64,000 nt of DNA. Source: a virus (lineage: Duplodnaviria > Caudoviricetes). The DNA lies in IMG/VR virus record IMGVR_UViG_3300048691_000224; one strand, given 5' to 3'. The position numbers were made by a program, and so were the translations under genes. Shown in pieces: positions 12,737 to 33,373 of the stretch (position 1 is its first letter; each line of letters opens with the position of its first letter). The notes beneath the pieces were generated by a model. The model saw only the letters and a list, made by a program, of their open reading frames with translations, was not told where the DNA came from and ran no database searches.

Positions 12737-13086
12737 GATTGTGTTCCTGTTGCTTTAGCAATTGCAATTTCAGCATTGTGAATAGATTCATCCATTGATG
12801 GACTAATGGCGTAAACCCCAAAACCTTCTTTAGCCTGCAGCACTTGACCATATAAATTTTGTAGAGCATCTAGTAGATCCGGTGCCGCTGTTATAAGTCG
12901 GGCATTGGCAGCAAACATCTCTCCGCAGTGCGTACCCTTACGCACTGCGGGAACCGTGCAAATACCTTGGTAACCCCTACCATCCCAATTTACAGGGTCT
13001 TGTTTGATGTGCCAGTTTCCAAACGACATGTTGCAAGCCCAAGGTCCCGGCGTGTGAGTTCCCTGTACTTTAGTTTGGTTACTCAT
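12733..13086 (-). CDS. HTPGPW/ANARLIAAAP-family phage protein (tandem paralog)
   Basis: HTPGPW...ANARLITAAPDLL; both paralogs contain KATGTQ at the C-terminus. Confidence 0.7.
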   Translation of the reverse strand: MSNQTKVQGTHTPGPWACNMSFGNWHIKQDPVNWDGRGYQGICTVPAVRKGTHCGEMFAANARLITAAPDLLDALQNLYGQVLQAKEGFGVYAISPSMDESIHNAEIAIAKATGTQS

Positions 13087-13594
13087 GTAGTTCCTTTGTC
13101 AATTCGACTTTGATTAATTCTTGTACGATTTTTGGATCCGCCTTGATTATCTTCAGTACACTCCCAACTAGTGCACCAATAGCTTTAGTATTACCGGACC
13201 GATATTGATCAGCCGCCCTCTCATTCTTTGCAATGACGTCACGCACTACAACTAAAATATCGGTAGAGCTTGCTTCGTTCATCAATCGTGAAGAACGCAA
13301 ATAGTCGATGATGTTGTACCCACAGTAATTATACCAACAATCATCGATAATTTTTTTCGCGTGAGAATATGATATAGTTTTGTGGTGTAGGCAACAAGCG
13401 ACATCTGCTGTCAGTTGAGTGAATCCATAATGATAGTACTCAATATCACCAATATCGGTGTCTTCCTTTTCCAATTTGGGTAGAATTTCATTTATCATTA
13501 GCTTAGCTAGATATGGGCCCGCCTCATTGGGATGGGCGCTAGTCAAACACGACATCATGATCGCACCCAATTTATCTTTTTCAGTTTCAGTCAT
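13079..13594 (-). CDS. Protein with C-terminal GatB/YqeY-like domain
   Basis: VIAKNERAADQYRSGNTKAIGALVGSVLK...KADPKIVQELI matches the GatB C-terminal pattern. Confidence 0.7.
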   Translation of the reverse strand: MTETEKDKLGAIMMSCLTSAHPNEAGPYLAKLMINEILPKLEKEDTDIGDIEYYHYGFTQLTADVACCLHHKTISYSHAKKIIDDCWYNYCGYNIIDYLRSSRLMNEASSTDILVVVRDVIAKNERAADQYRSGNTKAIGALVGSVLKIIKADPKIVQELIKVELTKELHE

Positions 13595-15186: not shown

Positions 15187-15263
15187 TGGCAGGGGCGGAA
15201 GGACTCGAACCTTCGCATGCTGGAATCAAAATCCAGTGCCTTAACCAACTTGGCGACGCCCCT
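15187..15263 (-). tRNA. tRNA-Gln(TTG)
   Basis: Cloverleaf; CTGGA-TTTTGAT-TCCAG; G73; encoded CCA. Confidence 0.95.
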
Positions 15264-15426
15264 ATAAAAAGATACTGGTTTCTTTCCCACCAGCAAAGTC
15301 ACGGTTCAGCAGTCAGCGCCGTTGTAACGCTAGAGCAGTGTGCCTTGGTCGATTATACCTAGAATCATCGACCTTCCGAAGTCGTTGGAATTGCTGCAGA
15401 CAACTCTCAACGACTCTATATCCAGA

Positions 15427-15981
15427 CTAAATCAACAGTCCAAGAGCATTTAAACCTTGTGTATGATAGTCGGCTGTAGATTCGAGTGCTTGTGGTGTAG
15501 ACATGTGAGCAAATGCGGCCGTGTGAAAGATTTCATCAGGTAAGATCTTCTGGAATACACTGCGAATGTCAGAGTCAATTTCATTGTCACTACACAGGGC
15601 ACGAATCCGAATCAATCGCATCTTCTCAGCGTGGTGACCCGCGCCAGCGAGCTCTTCAAAGTTTGTGAGATTTTTGAGGATTGGTTCCCAGTAACGATCA
15701 CCATCATAGGTAATCGCAGGTAGATGGATTCCCCTGGTGGTGAGTAGTTCACCGATCCAATCTCGATGAGTAGCTTCATCAACTGCAATGCGTCCTAGAA
15801 TCCTAGCCTTACCTGTTGCATCATCTGCAAATTTAAGTAGGGGAGACTCCATCAAACTATCCAATCGAGAGGCTGCAAGCGCCTCGCCGATGTACTGTCG
15901 GGTCAGCCAGTGGGTCAACTTGGCGCTACTCTGTTTAATTTCGACTAACCATTGTTCAGTTGTTTTCATGGAACTACTCAC
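15427..15981 (-). CDS. Ferritin-like di-iron four-helix protein
   Basis: IGEALA...DEATH...EKMR...DEIFH; paired ExxH ligands. Confidence 0.75.
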   Translation of the reverse strand: MSSSMKTTEQWLVEIKQSSAKLTHWLTRQYIGEALAASRLDSLMESPLLKFADDATGKARILGRIAVDEATHRDWIGELLTTRGIHLPAITYDGDRYWEPILKNLTNFEELAGAGHHAEKMRLIRIRALCSDNEIDSDIRSVFQKILPDEIFHTAAFAHMSTPQALESTADYHTQGLNALGLLI

Positions 15982-15991
15982 TAAAATAATA

Positions 15992-16066
15992 TGGTACCCT
16001 CTACTAGATTCGAACTAGTGACCTGCGCCTTATCGGGGCGTTGCTCTACCACTGCGCTAAGAGGGT
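15992..16066 (-). tRNA. tRNA-Ile(GAT)
   Basis: Loop CC-GAT-AA; CCA encoded. Confidence 0.9.
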
Positions 16067-16075
16067 GTATGTTTG

Positions 16076-16165
16076 TGGTGGGCTTGGGGAGAGTCGAACT
16101 CCCATGTCCTTTTACAGACGGTAGGACCTAAACCTACTGCGTTTCCTGAGTTTCACCACAAGCCC
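16076..16165 (-). tRNA. tRNA-Leu(TAG)
   Basis: GTAGG-TTTAGGT-CCTAC; long variable arm; CCA. Confidence 0.9.
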
Positions 16166-16175
16166 GATTTGTCTA

Positions 16176-16421
16176 TTATCTATCAGAAAGCATTTGTGCA
16201 ATCTTTAAATTTAATACGAAATTTTCTACGGTTAATTTGACGGCCGTCGCCAATAGTACCATGTCTCTGCAATCGCGTTCTGTAGCCAGGTATGTGTCTA
16301 ACACACCACCAGCTATCAATCGATACGCATCACACTCAGAGATCTCCAACATCCCCCAATCAATTGGGTCACCACACTCTATTTGTTGAGCGAGTTCGAC
16401 GAGTTGTTCTGTTAGGTTCAT
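16176..16421 (-). CDS. Hypothetical protein
   Basis: 81-aa ORF inside the tRNA cluster. Confidence 0.6.
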   Translation of the reverse strand: MNLTEQLVELAQQIECGDPIDWGMLEISECDAYRLIAGGVLDTYLATERDCRDMVLLATAVKLTVENFVLNLKIAQMLSDR

Positions 16422-16432
16422 ATTTTATTCTA

Positions 16433-16576
16433 CTACAATATGTATCGAGTGAGAATTAGTTCAATTACCAAGTACCACGCCCAAAATGGGAGGCAGAACG
16501 CAATAAGTGTTGACCAGAAACCTTTGGCAATTACGATACCAGCTACCCAAAATACAAGCACAGCCAATCTAAACAT
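16433..16576 (-). CDS. Small membrane protein, 47 aa (MFRLAVLVFWVAGIVIAKGFWSTLIAFCLPFWAWYLVIELILTRYIL)
   Basis: Translated by hand; AAGGA SD upstream; below the ORF-track cutoff. Confidence 0.6.
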   Translation of the reverse strand: MFRLAVLVFWVAGIVIAKGFWSTLIAFCLPFWAWYLVIELILTRYIL

Positions 16577-16731
16577 TGTCGCAGTTCCTTCATTAATGAT
16601 ATTGATTACTTTTAAGTAGGTGGGGTAGCCTAAGGCATAACTACCATGAGTGAGAGTCCGCTCAGAGGGTCGTGTTTCCGATTACCTCATTATTTGCCTC
16701 ACCTTTTGCGCTGATCAGACGCCTCTATTAC

Positions 16732-16806
16732 TGGTGCTCCCACAAGGACTTGAACCCTGCTTTCCGGATTACAAAACCGGTACATCGCCGTCTATGTTTT
16801 GAGAGC
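16732..16806 (-). tRNA. tRNA-Thr(TGT), class I
   Basis: Loop TT-TGT-AA; CCA. Confidence 0.85.
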
Positions 16807-16818
16807 TTTTTTCTTTAC

Positions 16819-16911
16819 TGGCGGAAACGAAGGGATTCGAACTCACGATGAGGCTCAACACCCCATACTCCCTTAGCAGGGGAGCACCTTCGGCCACTCG
16901 GTCACGTTTCC
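16819..16911 (-). tRNA. tRNA-Ser(GCT) with a mispaired T-stem
   Basis: CTCCC-CTGCTAA-GGGAG; long variable arm; T-stem GTGAG/CCCTT. Confidence 0.8.
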
Positions 16912-16914
16912 TGC

Positions 16915-17121
16915 TTAACTATAAAATTTCACAACAGATGTTACGAATGTAAAACCCCCATCCACTGCAGCTACTGATGCTAGTGCAATGATGTACCGTG
17001 CATCCCAAGATGCTACCATGGTGGCCGGCAACTCGGCATATAATATCGAAGCAAAATATCGATAGATGATTACGATCGCGACGATTGCAATAATTGCGGA
17101 GAGGATCAAAGAACTGTGCAT
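16915..17121 (-). CDS. Small membrane protein
   Basis: Two hydrophobic stretches. Confidence 0.45.
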   Translation of the reverse strand: MHSSLILSAIIAIVAIVIIYRYFASILYAELPATMVASWDARYIIALASVAAVDGGFTFVTSVVKFYS

Positions 17122-17149
17122 ATTGTTGTGTATAGTATTTGAGGTAAGG

Positions 17150-17224
17150 TGGAGCTGGGTATAGGAGTTGAACCTATATTTTCCGACTGGAGGTCGGACG
17201 TATTATCATTTATACGAACCCTGC
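17150..17224 (-). tRNA. tRNA-Gly(TCC)
   Basis: TCCGA-CCTCCAG-TCGGA; U73; CCA. Confidence 0.85.
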
Positions 17225-17242
17225 GTGATTGCGCTAAGAAGT

Positions 17243-17329
17243 TGGTGGAGGTGGTAAGATTCGAACTTACAGCGCCGTTAAGCACCGGGATTACAATCCG
17301 GCGGGGAAACCAGTCTCCCCAACACCTCC
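17243..17329 (-). tRNA. tRNA-Tyr(GTA)
   Basis: Loop TT-GTA-AT; long variable arm; CCA. Confidence 0.9.
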
Positions 17330-17356
17330 ATAGAATAGGTGTGAAATAATGAATAT

Positions 17357-17433
17357 TGGCGGACTGTGTGGGGAACACGATCCCACGACTTCTTGCTCGA
17401 CAGGCAAGCGCTCTACCACTGAGCTAACAATCC
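17357..17433 (-). tRNA. tRNA-Asp(GTC) with an atypical T-loop
   Basis: CTTGC-CTGTCGA-GCAAG; T-loop ATCGTGTTC. Confidence 0.8.
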
Positions 17434-17444
17434 TTATGTGTTTA

Positions 17445-17533
17445 TGGACCAAGCACTCAGATTTGAACTGAGGTGTGTATGTGATACATGCGGATTTGCA
17501 ATCCGCCCCCTTCGACCACTTGGGTATGCTTGG
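17445..17533 (-). tRNA. tRNA-Cys(GCA) with a long variable arm
   Basis: GCGGA-TTGCAAA-TCCGC; U73; extra arm TGTAT-CAC-ATACA. Confidence 0.85.
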
Positions 17534-17541
17534 TTGTGTGA

Positions 17542-17617
17542 TGGCTGACCAGGTTGGTTTCGAACCAACAACCTTCGGTTTTGGAGACCGACGCTCTGCC
17601 AATTGAGCTACTGATCA
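17542..17617 (-). tRNA. tRNA-Trp(CCA)
   Basis: TCGGT-CTCCAAA-ACCGA; CCA. Confidence 0.9.
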
Positions 17618-17626
17618 AAAAATTAC

Positions 17627-17699
17627 TGGTGGCATCACGTGAGGACTCTTACCCCAGAGTGTGTTATGAAGAACACACCAACAAACGATACACCATGCC
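17627..17699 (-). ncRNA. tRNA-like element with a TAAGAGT T-loop and CCA end
   Basis: GGCAT/ATGCC-A-CCA terminus; TGGGG-TAAGAGT-CCTCA arm; GTGTGT/ACACAC arm. Confidence 0.45.
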
Positions 17700-17747
17700 A
17701 CCACGATGCATTCTGTTTACTATTTCGGTTAATTACGCCGACTAATT

Positions 17748-17823
17748 TGGTTGCGGATGGAACGATTTGAACGCCTCCTTGAGGTTATGAGCCTCATGTG
17801 CTGCCGGATTACACTACACCGCG
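17748..17823 (-). tRNA. tRNA-Met(CAT), initiator-like (C1xA72), with a distorted T-arm
   Basis: TGAGG-CTCATAA-CCTCA; CCA; 5' end overlaps the HNH stop codon. Confidence 0.7.
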
Positions 17824-18632
17824 ATAACTTTTAATTTACTTACAGATTTCCGTAGAAAATAACCCGTTGGTGGTTTTGTTAATTCCCACTTTTTTACCCA
17901 ACGATTCACGCCATTGTCTGACATATTATACTTTTTACCAATTTTTGTTAACGGTATCTTCCACAATAATTCTTGCAATTCCTCTTTTGTAAAGTTTGCT
18001 TTTATAGGTTGTGGAATATATGGCGGCTTCTTTGCAACTGGTGAGTTCAATTGGGTTTTATTTCTACCAGCAAATGTGGTGGTTTGACTATGACAATTCG
18101 GACATAAGAAGCACAAATTTTCTAATCTGTGATCAGTTCGTACTCCATTCTTGTGTTCTAGTTGTAAAGTAATGGGAGTACCTTGCCAAATTGGCCCCAT
18201 ATCACAATTTACACATTTGTATTGTAGAACACCTTCCTTAATCAAACGCTTTTTCAAAGACGAACGGTCATAATTCGTGGATTCTATTAATATTTCTGAC
18301 AGTGGGCGGCCGGTAGATCCATTTCTTGTCTGAGGTCTATTTAAGTGAGGATCGAAATGTGAAATATCTATCCCATACTTCGCAACATATTTCCTAAATG
18401 TAACAGCATTTGATGCAGGAGTAAGCCCCAGCTGTCTTAATACTTCACTCATTGAGACCGATTTTTTAATCAACTCCTCCAACATTTGGCGATTATGCCA
18501 ATCTACTTTAAAACTACCTCTTTTTATATTGACCATACTATAGATTTGTCATCTGCTTGTCTATTTATGATGGCCAGCGAGATGGTTAGTTGGTGGGCTC
18601 ATGTGCTGCCGGATTACACTACACCGCGATAA
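17793..18632 (-). repeat. 35-bp exact direct repeat (17793-17827 and 18598-18632) containing the 5' half of tRNA-Met and flanking the HNH gene
   Basis: ctcatgtgctgccggattacactacaccgcgataa present twice. Confidence 0.95.
17814..18536 (-). mobile_element. Free-standing HNH homing endonuclease
   Basis: CVNC...LQLEHKNG...DHRLENLCFLCPNCHSQT; helical DNA-binding repeats at both ends. Confidence 0.85.
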
Positions 18633-18637
18633 ATTTC

Positions 18638-18719
18638 TGGGTCCATTCTGTGAGGACTCTTACCTCAGATTTTCTTCTACCCTTTCGAGGCAGACACTGT
18701 ATACACAGTAAGAATGACC
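18638..18719 (-). ncRNA. Second tRNA-like cloverleaf with a TAAGAGT T-loop and CCA end
   Basis: GTC-ATTCT/AGAAT-G-GAC; ACTGT/ACAGT; TCTGCC/GGTAGA; TGAGG-TAAGAGT-CCTCA. Confidence 0.5.
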
Positions 18720-18934
18720 ATAGACCCGAGATCATTTCTGTTTACTTCTACACCACGTCTGATGTACTAATTTTGGTTTTAGTTGCTACTGAGCTATATG
18801 CCAATAATATTTGTGAGGCTGTGCGAGCTCATCTGCACACTTGGGCTTTTTGTCTTCTCGTTCCAGCTGGCTCTTACGACTGTAGCGTCACCTCAAAAAA
18901 TGGTGCTCCCTCACTCAATCAGGAATACACAAAG

Positions 18935-19020
18935 TGCTGGACACAGGATTCGAACCTGCGATGGATAATAAAATCAATAGCTTACAAAACTATTCCCGTC
19001 AACCGCTTGGGTAATCCAGC
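18935..19020 (-). tRNA. tRNA-Thr(TGT) with a class II-like body (long variable arm); CCA not encoded
   Basis: GCTGGAT/GTCCAGC; ATAGT-TTTGTAA-GCTAT; 17-nt variable region. Confidence 0.75.
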
Positions 19021-19066
19021 ACTTTGTATACTCACTATGAGTGGTGGGTGCACGTTGTATATCTTC

Positions 19067-19137
19067 AGCGGAATGTCAGAATCGAACTGACAACCACAGT
19101 TTGGAAAACTGTCGTTTTACCATTAAACTAATCCCGC
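19067..19137 (-). tRNA. tRNA-Gly(TCC), second copy; CCA not encoded
   Basis: ACAGT-TTTCCAA-ACTGT; U73. Confidence 0.85.
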
Positions 19138-19235
19138 ATAAGTTGGACGTGTGTCGATGAAGCCCCACGATTATCCAATACGTGGTATTTTTCAGACTTG
19201 GCTTTCCAGTATTTACTGACTGGATACATTTGAAA

Positions 19236-19325
19236 TGGTGGAAGTAGTGAGATTCGAACTCACGGACGGATTGCTCCGCCGGCAGTTTTCAAGACTGCTC
19301 CATTAAACCACTTTGGTACACTTCC
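19236..19325 (-). tRNA. tRNA-Ser(TGA)
   Basis: GCAGT-CTTGAAA-ACTGC; long variable arm; CCA. Confidence 0.95.
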
Positions 19326-19346
19326 TTAAAATATTCGCATAATTTT

Positions 19347-19422
19347 TGGCAGGCCGGGCAGGGTTCGAACCTGCGACACTTCGCGTCAAAGGCGAATGCT
19401 CTACCAGCTGAGCTACCGACCG
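19347..19422 (-). tRNA. tRNA-Gln(TTG), second, divergent body
   Basis: TTCGC-CTTTGAC-GCGAA; G73; 1-72 mismatch. Confidence 0.8.
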
Positions 19423-19431
19423 ACAAAAATA

Positions 19432-19505
19432 TGGTGGACCGTCCCAGAATCGAACTGGGACTATAGCTTGCAAAGCTATCGTGTTACCATCTATACCAAC
19501 AGCCC
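19432..19505 (-). tRNA. tRNA-Ala(TGC)
   Basis: ATAGC-TTTGCAA-GCTAT; G3-U70; CCA. Confidence 0.95.
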
Positions 19506-19522
19506 TTTTGTTTACGCGTGTG

Positions 19523-19597
19523 TGGGTCAAATAATGGGGATCGAACCCATGCTAACAGAATCACAATCTGTGTTGCTACCATTACAACATATTTGAC
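19523..19597 (-). tRNA. tRNA-His(GTG)
   Basis: ACAGA-TTGTGAT-TCTGT; G-1:C73. Confidence 0.95.
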
Positions 19598-19600
19598 ATA

Positions 19601-20218
19601 CTATAACTCACCAAGTTGTTGTGCGCTAATCACGATCCTACGTGCTTGGTGTTTATTGTCGATTCCCCAAATTTCCTTGTTTCGAACAAGCGCCCGATAC
19701 TCAACGTCACTGTTAATTTGGGTAATTTCTCGAGGTGGTATCAGACTTACGTAGTATACCCACAAATCAATACGTAACGCATCCAGAATCCTATTGTCCC
19801 AGAATCGTTGCCCATCTTCCGTTTGTTGCGAGTCGGTAATGATTGATCTATACTTCGGCAACAAGCACTCGAAGAATACAAATTCGGTGAGCCCCCTTGT
19901 CTGAAATACCTGGGAGTCTCTCCACACCATTACTTGCTGTGCACAAGTTGTTCTGAGGTATGAGTTCGAGCCAACAGTAAATTGCATTGCGTATGCCGCT
20001 CTCTGAGTATCATGTTCGATCAGTGCGTATGCTCTCGTCGACTCGTAAAGAGTATAGTCGCCTATTTGTTTGATCGCTATTGGTCGCTTTGTTTCGAAAA
20101 ACTTGTGAGTAAATGCGGCATTCTTAATGTCATCCATCAGATGAAAATCTGTCGGAAACACAGACTGAGGCAGTTCAAACAGCTCCTGCGGCTTGACCTG
20201 TGATTGTATAAATTTCAT
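19601..20218 (-). CDS. Hypothetical protein embedded in the tRNA array
   Basis: 205-aa ORF; IITDSQQTEDGQRFW motif (possibly GNAT-like, unverified). Confidence 0.65.
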   Translation of the reverse strand: MKFIQSQVKPQELFELPQSVFPTDFHLMDDIKNAAFTHKFFETKRPIAIKQIGDYTLYESTRAYALIEHDTQRAAYAMQFTVGSNSYLRTTCAQQVMVWRDSQVFQTRGLTEFVFFECLLPKYRSIITDSQQTEDGQRFWDNRILDALRIDLWVYYVSLIPPREITQINSDVEYRALVRNKEIWGIDNKHQARRIVISAQQLGEL

Positions 20219-20233
20219 TGTGTATCCTAATTT

Positions 20234-20307
20234 TACAGCTACAGAGAATTGAACTCTGATTACTGGTGATGAGAACCCCAGCGTCCTAGACGTTAGACGA
20301 TAGCTGC
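20234..20307 (-). tRNA. tRNA-Glu(CTC), atypical anticodon stem; CCA not encoded
   Basis: Glu-type D-arm TCGTCTA...AGGAC; CTGGGG-TTCTCAT-CACCAG. Confidence 0.7.
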
Positions 20308-20345
20308 ATTTATTTTTCGGCTCTTGCTAACCGATCGATTCATCA

Positions 20346-20485
20346 ATATGATGGTCAGGATTTTAACCTGACGTTTCCACGGGCACGAGTATCCTTATTT
20401 AGACGACTACAGTTAACCCGTAGATGAGTTTCAAAACTCACGTCTCTCGCTGTTGAGGTATCCTAATCTCTAGATGACATCATAT
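20346..20485 (-). ncRNA. 140-nt double-cloverleaf tRNA-like RNA candidate
   Basis: ATATGATG/CATCATAT outer stem; two D-arm+T-arm modules; central CTACGG/CTGTAG hairpin. Confidence 0.6.
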
Positions 20486-20497
20486 AATTAAAAATTT

Positions 20498-20571
20498 TGG
20501 TACAGATACGGGGAGTCGAACCCCGCTTAGTAGAGAGAAAATCTACTGTCCTACCGATAGACGATATCTGC
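20498..20571 (-). tRNA. tRNA-Glu(TTC) with a pyrimidine at position 37
   Basis: GTAGA-TTTTCTC-TCTAC; CCA. Confidence 0.9.
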
Positions 20572-20582
20572 ATTTATTTTTG

Positions 20583-20620
20583 TGGCTCCTTAGACAGGCA
20601 TCTCGAACCTGTATATTACG
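20583..20620 (-). pseudogene. tRNA 3'-half remnant
   Basis: ACAGG-TTCGAGATG-CCTGT followed by ...GAGCCA; no 5' half visible. Confidence 0.35.
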
Positions 20621-20623
20621 GCT

Positions 20624-20697
20624 TGGTCAGGGTAGAAGGAATCGAACCTTCACCACGACGTCCCAAACGTCGCATGATACCATTTCACCACACCCTG
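20624..20697 (-). tRNA. tRNA-Pro(TGG)
   Basis: CGACG-TTTGGGA-CGTCG; CCA. Confidence 0.95.
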
Positions 20698-20702
20698 ATA
20701 AC

Positions 20703-20775
20703 TAATTAGATCTAAGTGTGCTCCTGTTACAAACTGCCGGTGAGGCCTGGCGTAGTGCACACTTAGATCTAATTA
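20703..20775. repeat. Perfect 19-bp inverted repeat with a 35-nt loop
   Basis: taattagatctaagtgtgc / gcacacttagatctaatta. Confidence 0.9.
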
Positions 20776-20960
20776 CTCAGGGTTGAGAGACACAAATTGT
20801 ATTAACGGGAGGAATGAGGCATCAGCGACCACTCATATTACCAACTCACAAATTAATACAAAGCATTTCACGCCCTGAGTAATAAGATATTATTTCACAC
20901 CTATTTGTTAATGATCATTTTTGCTACAGAATTCGATGATTCTGAGTGCACATATAATTG

Positions 20961-20992
20961 AAAAGAGCCTTGTAAATTACTTGGCTCTTTTT
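20961..20992. terminator. Bidirectional intrinsic terminator-like hairpin
   Basis: AAAAGAGCC...GGCTCTTTTT. Confidence 0.6.
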
Positions 20993-21182
20993 GTGTTTGT
21001 TATAATTCTTATTATTCTGAGGGATCAAATTCTTTTTCGATCTCCATAATTTCGATTATCACATACACAGGGAGCTTTACAATCCGCCGGCGTCCAATAA
21101 TTGGCTTCCGTCTGGCAATGTTCACTTCCTGTATTATACGAATTCAAAATCATTTCTTGATCTCTTTATTTGCTATCTGTCT

Positions 21183-21211
21183 ATTATATATGCTTTATTT
21201 ATATAAGTCAA
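21183..21211 (-). promoter_or_regulatory. Sigma70-type promoter (TTGACT-N17-TATAAT) driving the main tRNA array
   Basis: Near-consensus, upstream of the ORF-free structured region. Confidence 0.8.
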
Positions 21212-21233
21212 CAATTATTTTACCAAAATTTTA

Positions 21234-21352
21234 AAAATATTTTCAAATCAAAGTTTAGAAAGGACTTGAACCTCCCATCCAATAGGATAGCAATTGAACG
21301 CCGCCCCGACTGCTCTACCAATGAGCTATAAAATTTGATTTGAAAATATTTT
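21234..21352 (-). ncRNA. tRNA-mimic element E3 (D-arm and T-arm inside a 19-bp perfect terminal stem)
   Basis: TA-GCTC-ATTGGTA-GAGC; GGAGG-TTCAAGT-CCTTT; AAAATATTTTCAAATCAAA and its complement. Confidence 0.65.
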
Positions 21353-21376
21353 AGATTTTCTAACTACTTAGACCCC

Positions 21377-21404
21377 ATTATCAACATTTATTTGAACAGG
21401 TCAA
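21377..21404 (-). promoter_or_regulatory. Promoter (TTGACC-N16-GATAAT) for element E3
   Basis: Family-like -35 box, directly upstream of E3. Confidence 0.65.
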
Positions 21405-21423
21405 CAATTATTTTTCAACTTGA

Positions 21424-21600
21424 AAAATAAATTTAGAAAGAGCGGGTAAAGGGAGATCGAACCCTAACAACTTAGTGGATTTCTCGATAGGTAATATTAC
21501 CTCCTATCGCGGCACAGATCCTCAATACTAATTAGGAGTCTACTAATCTATGCCCGCACGAAGTTGGCTGCCTTGCAACCACTCTTTCTGAATTTATTTT
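21424..21600 (-). ncRNA. tRNA-mimic element E2 (extended anticodon arm, 19-bp terminal stem)
   Basis: GCGGGCA/TACCCGC; GATT/AATT D-stem; AGGG-TTCGATCT-CCCT; CGATAGG/CCTATCG. Confidence 0.6.
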
Positions 21601-21616
21601 ATACAAGAATTGCACT

Positions 21617-21766
21617 AAAAACTGAACACAGTACTCGGTTGGATTTGCACCAACTACCACCTGATGGTTACAGGTCGTACTATTCTCATGGGCTTTATAG
21701 CTAATATTTCCCACTACCTTTGTACTAGCTCTACTATTTAAGCTATCGTTACACTGTTCAGATTTT
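21617..21766 (-). ncRNA. tRNA-mimic element E1 (extended anticodon arm, variable arm, terminal stem)
   Basis: GCTT-AAATAGTA-GAGC; ACCTG/CAGGT; GTTGG-TGCAAAT-CCAAC; CTGAACA/TGTTCAG. Confidence 0.6.
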
Positions 21767-21789
21767 AATGTAATCCTCACTTGATATCC

Positions 21790-21817
21790 ATTATCAATGA
21801 AGTTTCAAACAAGTCAA
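21790..21817 (-). promoter_or_regulatory. Promoter (TTGACT-N16-GATAAT) for elements E1+E2
   Basis: Directly upstream of E1. Confidence 0.65.
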
Positions 21818-21824
21818 CAATTAT

Positions 21825-22025
21825 TTAATTTACTTTCTGGCCGGTGCTGGAATTGATGCACAAAAATCGGCTGGTATTAGAGTCTCCAATTTTACTAGCC
21901 ACAAGCAATGTGGTGCTTGCATTTTTGCAAGCAAGTTCTGATGCATAATTACCTAACACAGCTGGTGCAGCTAATGGATTGTGGAATGATGCTGCAATGT
22001 AAATTAGTGTGTATACGGTCGCCAT
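21825..22025 (-). CDS. Small exported/membrane protein (GxYAS..AC family), paralog of 27254-27466
   Basis: Hydrophobic N-terminus; LGNYASELACK; AAGGA SD. Confidence 0.6.
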   Translation of the reverse strand: MATVYTLIYIAASFHNPLAAPAVLGNYASELACKNASTTLLVASKIGDSNTSRFLCINSSTGQKVN

Positions 22026-22061
22026 TTTGAATTTCCTTTATTAAACTTGCTCTTAGGGTCT

Positions 22062-22089
22062 ATTATACCCCAAATCGGAGTAAGGTCAA
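22062..22089 (-). promoter_or_regulatory. Early promoter (TTGACC-N16-TATAAT)
   Basis: Family member with the -10 palindrome. Confidence 0.8.
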
Positions 22090-22128
22090 CAAGTAATTCA
22101 AGTTTTTATGGTTTTAATCAAAAAAAGT

Positions 22129-32689: not shown

Positions 32690-33373
32690 TTATTCAATGG
32701 GTTGATCGGGATTGGGTTTAGCTAATTTTGAAGTTAATTTTTTTGGTTTAGGTTCTTGGAGAGTTGATTGCGCTTGCTTGGCTAGTTCCTTCAGTCGCTT
32801 CTCAATTGTCTCAGAAAGTAACCAAAGTTCTTCACCGTTGTCTATCTTCTTAATCTCATCGCTGGTGAGAAACTTTGAACATATCTTCTTGACGAGATTT
32901 GAGTATTGTCTCTTGTATGCGACAATCTGTCGATCGACGTCCGAACTCTTACCATAGAATCCACCACTGAATGTGTGGAACATCAACATTGTACAATCAT
33001 GCACAACATACTGGTGCCCCGCAAGGAAAATAATTGCAGCCATCGAGCTAGCACTAGAATCTAGCACTGTCGTAACAGTCGCTCGTGATTCAGCAATTGC
33101 GCTACAAATTGCAATACCAGTATCGAGTCTCCCACCATCCGAATTTAGGTATATCGTGATGTCATCGTGTGGTTCTGCAGTGCGAATCGTATTGATCATC
33201 TCAACATAATTAGCGGGTGCGCCGATCGGTCCATACAAGTAGTACGGATGTTGTTTTACGGGGATTACCCGCGAAAGACTTTGCTTGTATACGATGTTAA
33301 TCGGGGCATCATCTAATTCTGCTTCTTCATCAAGATTGTTATTTTTGGAGATTTTGCTCATTGCCTGATTCAC
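32690..33373 (-). CDS. ClpP-like serine protease
   Basis: IYLNSDGG...SASSMAAII...MLMFH. Confidence 0.85.
   Translation of the reverse strand: MNQAMSKISKNNNLDEEAELDDAPINIVYKQSLSRVIPVKQHPYYLYGPIGAPANYVEMINTIRTAEPHDDITIYLNSDGGRLDTGIAICSAIAESRATVTTVLDSSASSMAAIIFLAGHQYVVHDCTMLMFHTFSGGFYGKSSDVDRQIVAYKRQYSNLVKKICSKFLTSDEIKKIDNGEELWLLSETIEKRLKELAKQAQSTLQEPKPKKLTSKLAKPNPDQPIE

Follow-up and report, generated by a model that had tools for sequence, protein, structure and literature searches.

A probable non-coding RNA gene of transfer RNA descent, closed by a 28-base-pair terminal helix, in the tRNA array of an uncultured tailed phage

Stable RNAs that resemble transfer RNAs (tRNAs) are known from phages T5 and T4. 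In the tRNA region of T5 (GenBank AY543070) six stable RNAs are annotated, two of which, RNA1 (30501–30644) and RNA2 (32959–33083), are labelled ‘tRNA-like stable RNA with unknown functions’; the others are RNAI, RNAIII, RNAIV and RNA2H. In T4, RNAC (species 1, rnaC; ∼140 nucleotides (nt)) and RNAD (species 2; ∼119 nt) are encoded directly downstream of tRNA-Arg, on the strand of the tRNA genes and at the margin of their cluster. They are expressed as late RNAs (PMC9697503) and their roles are listed as unknown (PMC3014915). Here we describe E1, a 172-nt element on the minus strand of a 64,000-nt stretch of viral DNA (IMG/VR record IMGVR_UViG_3300048691_000224; Duplodnaviria, Caudoviricetes), the whole of which we call the window. 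The window comes from a large tailed phage, with open reading frames (ORFs) that include a family B DNA polymerase, a ribonucleotide reductase and baseplate proteins, and its minus strand carries 21 tRNA genes (15187–20697 and 26560–26720). E1 occupies a tRNA-free gap within this array. On balance we favour the view that E1 is a real, structured RNA gene that derives from a tRNA and is neither a protein gene nor a decoding tRNA, similar in kind to the T5 and T4 RNAs.

E1 consists of a tRNA-shaped core of 116 nt held within a terminal helix, or clamp, of 28 positions. In the window 24 of these positions are paired, and 27 of 28 are paired in a strain variant, L279. An earlier reading of the letters without database searches (the sequence-only reading) had closed the element with the stem AAAA.CTGAACA/TGTTCAG.TTTT. 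This stem is present, appearing as 7 base pairs (bp) flanked by A and U runs when the proposed 150-nt interval 21617–21766 is folded, but the full helix is far longer and the clamp had been missed. The 150-nt interval folds with −40.4 kcal/mol (z = −3.15), and none of 200 shuffles was equally good. For the longer segment 21600–21783 the minus strand gave −53.6 kcal/mol (z = −4.8) and the plus strand −40.2 kcal/mol (z = −3.0). The minus strand folds 13 kcal/mol better, as would be expected of an RNA from that strand with G–U pairs in its helix, and in the window the G–U pairs of the clamp favour the minus-strand RNA. The z-scores of the other alleles were −5.6 for the L279 copy (E1 nt 1–151) and −7.2 for the full element of a more distant phage, L366 (−64.1 kcal/mol).

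These three alleles (window, L279 and L366) are the basis of all the comparisons of E1. L279 is the commoner strain allele, present on at least eight contigs; it is 98.3% identical to the window over 4.8 kilobases (kb) and identical to a further contig, L365, across the cassette to which E1 belongs. The flanks of L366 are 80–84% identical to the window in nucleotides, and L366 lacks the 22.1–28.9 kb segment of the window. The window clamp has mismatches at 5/146, 13/138 and 14/137, all of which are paired in L279. In L366 another mismatch is replaced by a G–C pair, and two further pairs withstand a change on one side only. Although L366 also lacks a pair elsewhere and has a UU bulge, a 27-bp helix still forms. 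The clamp is therefore maintained across the alleles. Over the three alleles 95.8% of the cells expected to be paired were paired, compared with 29–44% in slid controls.

The difference between the alleles is spread very unevenly. The core has diverged at 3 of 116 positions between the window and L366, the promoter and leader at 17 of 49 (Fisher p = 6e-8 against the core) and the flanking coding DNA at 137 of 1002 (Fisher p = 1.6e-4 against the core). The core is thus ∼13-fold less diverged than the leader and ∼5-fold less diverged than the coding flanks. Six core sites vary among the three alleles, and all six are unpaired, in loops or linkers (p = 0.023). By this distribution the core is under purifying selection, with variation that avoids the stems.

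The core folds into the arms listed in Table 1. All five helices named by the sequence-only reading (D-arm, anticodon-position stem, variable-arm hairpin, T-arm and closing stem) were recovered on the minus strand, both by direct reading and in the minimum-free-energy fold, and the arm at the anticodon position is indeed enlarged. Its inner helix has 5 bp (21710–21714 with 21688–21692) and is capped by a 17-nt apical loop, and the whole arm is invariant in all three alleles. The stems of the D- and T-arms are likewise invariant, with one variable site in the D-loop and three in the T-loop. Hairpin C could be either the equivalent of a variable arm or an imitation of an anticodon arm in which A replaces U33, as its geometry (5 bp, a 7-nt loop and 4 nt between it and the T-arm) is exactly that of an anticodon arm. 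In addition, the GUAC segments can pair in two ways, and in some folds 21677–21679 pairs with 21655–21657. The D-arm, anticodon-position stem, extra hairpin and T-arm can all be placed in tRNA numbering, but the ‘class II-like’ mapping given earlier is not unique. The invariant apical loop also holds a self-complementary hexamer, UAGCUA (21695–21700, minus strand), which could form loop–loop dimers or compete with the D-stem, both strands of which hold an AGCU core.

Table 1. Positions of E1, its parts and the neighbouring features in the window
Feature	Coordinates	Strand	Description
Full E1	21606–21777	minus	28-bp terminal helix, 116-nt core; seen in folds; three-allele covariance model scores the alleles at 180–191 bits
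Clamp, 5′ arm (leader)	21750–21777	minus	pairs with 21606–21633
5′ junction linker ACGA	21746–21749	minus	acceptor positions 4–7; no in-register pairing with 21634–21637
D-arm	21726–21745	minus	6-bp stem, 8-nt GG-less UAGUA-type loop; seen in folds
Enlarged arm at the anticodon position	21677–21725	minus	4-bp GUAC/GUAC stem, 7×7 internal loop, inner helix
Hairpin C	21659–21675	minus	5-bp stem, 7-nt loop; seen in folds; one loop base differs in L366
T-arm	21638–21654	minus	5-bp stem, UGCAAAU loop (G at position 55); seen in folds
3′ junction linker CGAG	21634–21637	minus	between T-stem and terminal helix; direct reading and folds
Clamp, 3′ arm (trailer)	21606–21633	minus	one-sided changes retain pairing (G–C to G–U, U–G to C–G)
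Promoter P1 (sigma70-like)	21790–21817	minus	−35 box 21812–21817, 16-nt spacer, −10 box 21790–21795
Unit 2	21424–21600	minus	22-bp terminal helix, 133-nt tRNA-like core; inverted repeat I2
Promoter P2	21377–21404	minus	precedes unit 3
Unit 3	21234–21352	minus	24-bp terminal helix, 71-nt near-tRNA core; inverted repeat I1
Spurious 82-amino-acid ORF	21532–21780	minus	GTG start; overlies E1

The elbow, where the D- and T-loops meet in a tRNA, was compared with that of 486 distinct tRNAs called in the fetched loci and the window. Where the T-loop was canonical, a GG D-loop was present in 373 of 386 tRNAs and the GG-less UAGU type in none of the 386. Where the T-loop was UGCAAAU, a GG D-loop was present in only 3 of 31 and the GG-less UAGU-type D-loop in 23. 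The UAGUA-type D-loop and UGCAAAU T-loop of E1 are a matched pair that co-occurs in called phage tRNAs, and the elbow of E1 is genuine, as was supposed when its arms were first described as tRNA-like. In loci that had not been selected for this T-arm, the UG-type T-loop occurred in 2 of 151 T-arm-like hairpins. An 18-mer probe of the T-arm matched more than 116 viral contigs, which are unrelated and are informative for the elbow rather than for E1 homologues. At 116 such sites on viral contigs (L001–L116), 67 lay outside any tRNA call and 25 lay within 75-nt ‘tRNA-???’ calls with 8-nt anticodon loops (a family that includes L005, L006 and L007). The combination of UGCAAAU (G55) with a UAGU-type D-loop looks to be an elbow class of its own among phage tRNA-like RNAs. 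In the window, the T-arm of E1 is the only site of its type, and therefore E1 is not a recent copy of a local tRNA.

Outside the elbow, E1 lacks what a decoding tRNA needs. Acceptor positions 4–7 and 66–69 (ACGA opposite CGAG) are unpaired in register, leaving a 4-nt linker on each side; the 5′ linker has one extra A, and thus 5 nt, in the alignments of L279 and L366. In an ordinary tRNA there is no linker between the T-stem and the acceptor helix. The strands of the anticodon-position stem are separated by 41 nt, with no 7-nt anticodon loop bearing U33. The only 7-nt loop on a 5-bp stem is that of hairpin C, which has A at position 33 and a middle triplet that varies between alleles; decoding is therefore disfavoured. 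No CCA end is encoded by E1. ARAGORN did not call E1 in default, relaxed (-ps80/-ps90) or intron mode, nor, at the default threshold, after the 41-nt insert had been replaced by every possible 7-nt loop, and there was no match to the Rfam tRNA family RF00005 over E1 at E<=10 even with a search space of 581 nt. Transfer-messenger RNA was considered as another candidate and was rejected by ARAGORN -m. 6S RNA, the skipping-rope RNA and the other curated Rfam families likewise gave no match over E1 at E<=10. E1 is not a decoding tRNA, and it is tRNA-derived.

E1 has a promoter of its own. The promoter scan identified P1 as TTGACT, a 16-nt spacer and a GATAAT that ends at 21790, with 10 of 12 matches to the sigma70-like boxes, and both boxes are retained in L366 despite the differences in the surrounding leader. 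A promoter had been noted just before the element from the start; the helix proper begins 13 nt after the −10 box, ∼6 nt past the predicted transcription start, whereas the start formerly given, 21766, lies 24 nt past that box. The promoter box is one of three copies (repeat family D6: 21788–21826, 21375–21413 and 21182–21220). E1 would be transcribed from this promoter, probably together with the unit that follows.

This following unit belongs with E1 to a cassette of three clamped units, formed by inverted repeats, that share one build and of which E1 is the first. Only 5 nt separate E1 from unit 2 downstream of it, and since no promoter is predicted in this gap the two are probably co-transcribed. 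Its core has a canonical T-arm and alternative pairings for a GCGGG 5′ segment, and differs from that of L366 at 2 of 133 sites. The helix of unit 3 is paired at 23 of 24 positions in the window and at all 24 in L279 by hand check; its core has ∼13 extra nt in the anticodon region and scores 20.2 bits (window) or 27.4 bits (L366) as an Rfam tRNA, for which the threshold is 29. Where L279 differs from the window in the helices of these two units, direct reading shows that pairing is again kept or gained.

A fourth clamped element in the window is an 87-nt call without CCA, ‘tRNA-Thr(tgt)’, at 18934–19020. It sits within a long leader/trailer helix (18923–19033, minus strand; 23 of 25 positions paired), is one of only three called tRNAs of the window with no encoded CCA, and coexists with an ordinary 75-nt tRNA-Thr(tgt) at 16732–16806. 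In other phage loci, clamps of 17–24 pairs surround ∼8–10 of 882 T-arm sites, and the E1 clamp is the longest found. Beyond the cassette, the third copy of the promoter box (21183–21211) drives a 42-amino-acid ORF with four cysteines (21025–21153, minus strand), which is followed by a terminator made of a stem and a U-run (∼20961–20991). The start of this ORF also adjoins the cassette in L366.

Searches for further copies point to a narrow distribution. R1, the covariance model derived from all three alleles, detected neither a paralogue in the window nor a further copy in the 50 sources searched. A nucleotide search of deposited phages with 21300–22100 gave no match, and an ORF-based search found no homologous DNA. 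When E1-specific DNA patterns were run against IMG/VR, the T-arm-junction pattern had no match and the other three matched only L366; E1 is therefore lineage-specific. Contigs were also reached through neighbouring genes. The P0001 anchor led to L279 and a 66-amino-acid ORF gave L365. The relatives reached through the RNA ligase anchor in viral and metagenome contigs were up to 74% identical; E1 accompanied none of them, and in the five closest the ligase was not in a tRNA array. The DNA polymerase B anchor yielded relatives at 77% identity on records without E1. The best non-self matches of R1 (18–24 bits) were elements in L108 and L025, in unrelated phages, and reflect the generic plan of closing stem, D-arm and T-arm; the locus set was biased by the T-arm probe and the folds of these matches were not individually significant. 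The loci concerned (L108 4737–6445 and L025 1444–4301) are related phage contigs with several oversized (120–150 nt) tRNA-like elements closed by helices of 8–12 bp.

By kind, E1 can be grouped with RNA1 and RNA2 of T5 and RNAC of T4, as an analogy rather than as a homologous family. It shares with them a place in a tRNA cluster on the tRNA strand, a length of 100–175 nt, paired ends, a T-arm and an oversized irregular arm. The T5 stable RNAs are 103–172 nt long and, like E1, some are in tandem and some lie directly behind promoters of their own. The fold of T5 RNA1 has the E1 layout of closing stem, D-arm, a ∼55-nt arm at the anticodon position, an extra hairpin (6 bp with a 7-nt loop, against 5 bp and 7 nt in hairpin C) and a canonical T-arm. 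The T5 RNAs differ in that their closing stems are of 6–12 bp rather than 28 bp, in that no UGC-type T-loop occurs in the region, and in having been detected experimentally, whereas E1 is predicted from sequence. The fold of T4 RNAC resembles E1 in that its ends pair, one of its arms is long and irregular, and an additional hairpin precedes a canonical T-arm; unlike E1, it is predicted to have neither a D-arm-like hairpin nor a long clamp, and the T4 RNAs follow a tRNA gene where E1 follows its own promoter.

Other tRNA-shaped RNAs are more distant. The oversized ‘intron-containing’ tRNA genes of the Lak megaphages (Devoto et al. 2019, PMC6784885) are, like E1, tRNA-shaped, too long and found in phages, with highly conserved inserts of unexplained fate. 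They are still identified as tRNAs, anticodon included, when an intron is permitted; E1 is not, and it has no paired acceptor base either. The YrlA Y RNAs (Chen et al. 2014, PMC4201824; Rfam RF02553) are also non-coding RNAs that have D- and T-arms of the tRNA type but lack a free CCA end, and some phages carry them. They differ in being encoded beside Ro60/Rsr and in their Ro-binding GNCGAA-type motif. Their topology is also different: the chain begins and ends on the anticodon side, and the ‘acceptor’ forms a closed hairpin that lies between the T-arm and the D-arm, whereas in E1 the D-arm precedes the T-arm and the ends are at the acceptor side. RF02553 had no match over E1 (its only match, of 13.6 bits and E = 9.4, was in unit 3), and no Ro60/Rsr (TROVE) gene was found among the 38 ORFs scanned with Pfam.

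These features suggest how E1 might work. The first and last 28 nt zip into a long duplex around the five-helix core. This core retains the tRNA elbow, but its arm at the anticodon position is oversized, none of its acceptor bases is paired and a CCA end is absent. In ribosomal RNA (rRNA) operons, the leader and trailer flanking a stable RNA pair into a duplex of at least 20 bp that is an RNase III substrate. E1 resembles these in the near-continuous duplex of at least 20 bp formed by its flanks, and differs in that its duplex encloses a 116-nt tRNA-shaped core in a phage; here RNase III cleavage is putative. By this likeness the duplex may be a stalk for processing, for stability or for both. 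The processed core may then act in trans as an uncharged tRNA look-alike. A plausible role would be to bind or divert a factor that recognises tRNA, for example a host defence nuclease that targets tRNA; a modification or processing enzyme, or a phage protein that handles tRNA, would be other plausible targets. Phage tRNAs are known to counter tRNA-targeting defences (PMC10264068, PMC11555353, PMC13096335).

Several points weigh against this account. A mimic or decoy function is something that we infer, and the earlier term ‘mimic’ holds as a description of shape only. Neither an RNase III gene nor an identified binding partner of E1 was found among the ORFs scanned, and the topology of the junction is ambiguous between folds. 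Homology to the T5 RNAs was not detected (R1 scored RNA2 at 11.3 bits, E = 1.5, and did not match RNA1); nor is there any alignable similarity to the T4 RNAs, with no R1 match to rnaC. Among the three close alleles there is no two-sided compensatory change, so that formal covariation is nil, and the direction of the changes between mismatch and pair in the clamp cannot be polarised. Finally, recent exchange of the cassette between phages could inflate the apparent conservation. The leader within the same cassette is, however, 35% diverged, and exchange therefore does not explain why conservation is so uneven.

A bolder version of the same idea, which we regard as possible but doubtful, takes E1 and its two neighbours together as a cassette of clamped, uncharged tRNA look-alikes made from strong promoters, which would soak up or misdirect a tRNA-recognising factor. 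The UAGUA/UGCAAAU (G55) elbow would then mark a separate and widespread class of non-decoding phage tRNA-like RNAs. If this were true, the target could be, for example, a host tRNA-cleaving defence nuclease or a phage elbow-binding protein.

The alternative that survives best, although we consider it unlikely, is that E1 acts only in cis, as a module for processing, stability or termination, its clamp and tRNA-like core providing entry sites for RNase III or RNase P, or simply spacers, by which the array transcripts are shaped. The close packing of the units, 5 nt apart, would suit such a module, as would the occurrence of long leader-trailer helices around tRNA cores of ordinary size at the ∼8–10 T-arm sites in other phage arrays. 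However, the next promoter is reached before any canonical tRNA or ORF; P1 thus serves E1 and unit 2 alone, which leaves nothing else to process. Moreover, the unpaired 7×7 internal loop and 17-nt apical loop are invariant, which a mere spacer does not need.

It is improbable that E1 is instead the precursor of a working tRNA, freed of its clamp by RNase III, RNase P and 3′ trimming, given a CCA end and charged, with the extra ∼34 nt spliced out or with hairpin C serving as the anticodon arm. The genuine D/T elbow fits a precursor, the inner three pairs of the clamp fall at acceptor places 1–3 with window positions −1 and −2 unpaired, unit 3 of the same cassette is nearly a tRNA, and the Lak genes provide reported examples of ‘intron-bearing’ phage tRNAs. 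Against this stand the unpaired acceptor positions, the missing U33 loop and the failure of ARAGORN in intron mode and with every substituted loop. The would-be anticodon of hairpin C changes from ACC to AUC between alleles, which would be intolerable for a decoding tRNA, and E1 does not encode the CCA that 18 of the 21 local tRNAs do. As for splicing, the insert at 41 nt falls far short of the size of a group I intron, no bulge-helix-bulge motif was seen and no splicing endonuclease was present among the ORFs scanned.

Still less credible is a decaying pseudogene, the neutral relic of a duplicated class II tRNA gene. Such a relic might have the broken acceptor and oversized middle of E1, the window clamp does have three more mismatches than the commoner allele, and pseudo-tRNAs are found in phage arrays, one being flagged in T5. 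A neutral relic would not be expected to have a conserved promoter of its own, a core so much less diverged than the leader and coding flanks, changes that avoid the stems, or a clamp maintained through different sequences, and the T-loop type found at no other site in the window argues against a recent local duplicate.

We give slightly less credence again to the inverted repeats being features of the DNA, such as terminal repeats like those of miniature inverted-repeat transposable elements (MITEs), or a signal for recombination or replication. Three short cores are indeed flanked by inverted repeats of 28, 22 and 24 bp, and the cassette has a different neighbourhood in L366. Furthermore, the non-coding RNA block 20590–21910 is ∼5% diverged between the window and L279, whereas to either side of it the two strains share kilobases of identical coding DNA; this block could be either a recombination mosaic or a locally fast-evolving region. 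However, the three units have arms whose sequences are unrelated to one another and have no further copies, no target-site duplication was seen, and the altered neighbourhood in L366 is due to a 6.8-kb indel upstream, the cassette having kept its downstream neighbour. The G–U pairs are consistent only with pairing in minus-strand RNA, as is the change from G to U that L279 and L366 have at position 13.

That the overlapping ORF encodes a small protein is already effectively refuted: an open frame with a GTG start exists, but Pfam gave no match, a search of 5.8 billion protein clusters returned no relative at E<=1, the ORF is shifted out of frame by a 1-nt insertion in L279 and stops there at codon 13, the JGI gene caller placed no gene at the locus on L279, and its GTG (21780) sits 10 nt after the −10 box, too close for a Shine-Dalgarno sequence to fit. 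On both the lack of room and the preference for an RNA, the sequence-only reading was right; E1 is non-coding and not a protein gene.

Other features of the array were recorded alongside E1. A perfect 19-bp hairpin with a 35-nt loop (20703–20775, minus strand; z = −6.2) lies directly upstream of tRNA-Pro and overlaps one arm of a 16-bp long-range helix (20767–20888, minus strand) that encloses 90 nt; in this region L279 has a 5-nt insertion and several loop substitutions. Among the proteins of the scanned context, Pfam identified an RNase T-like exonuclease, nucleases, an RNA ligase and a GatB/YqeY-domain protein. The last of these (PF02637, E = 2.5e-17) stands alone at 13079–13594 (minus strand), just outside the tRNA array. 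The RNA ligase (PF09414, E = 3.8e-23) lies at 23255–23896 (minus strand), within the array and 1.5 kb upstream of E1; its relatives (68–74% identity) are on large contigs and do not adjoin tRNA genes, and L366 lacks the whole ligase segment.

E1 thus appears to be a clamped variant of the known but unexplained stable tRNA-like RNAs of phages, with a putative function. Selection on E1 in an unrelated, uncultured lineage argues that RNAs of the T4 and T5 kind do something. To these RNAs E1 adds two features, the 28-bp leader-trailer clamp, which recurs in three neighbouring units and is rarer in other phage arrays, and the elbow of G55 T-loop and GG-less D-loop, which in our sample occurred for the most part in tRNA-shaped genes of non-canonical form. 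Such RNAs escape every curated family and tRNA finder and are therefore left unannotated or mis-annotated as small ORFs. Defences that target tRNA, and the tRNA-based responses of phages to them, are under active study. As uncharged tRNA look-alikes with promoters of their own, they would be obvious candidates for decoy or regulatory roles.

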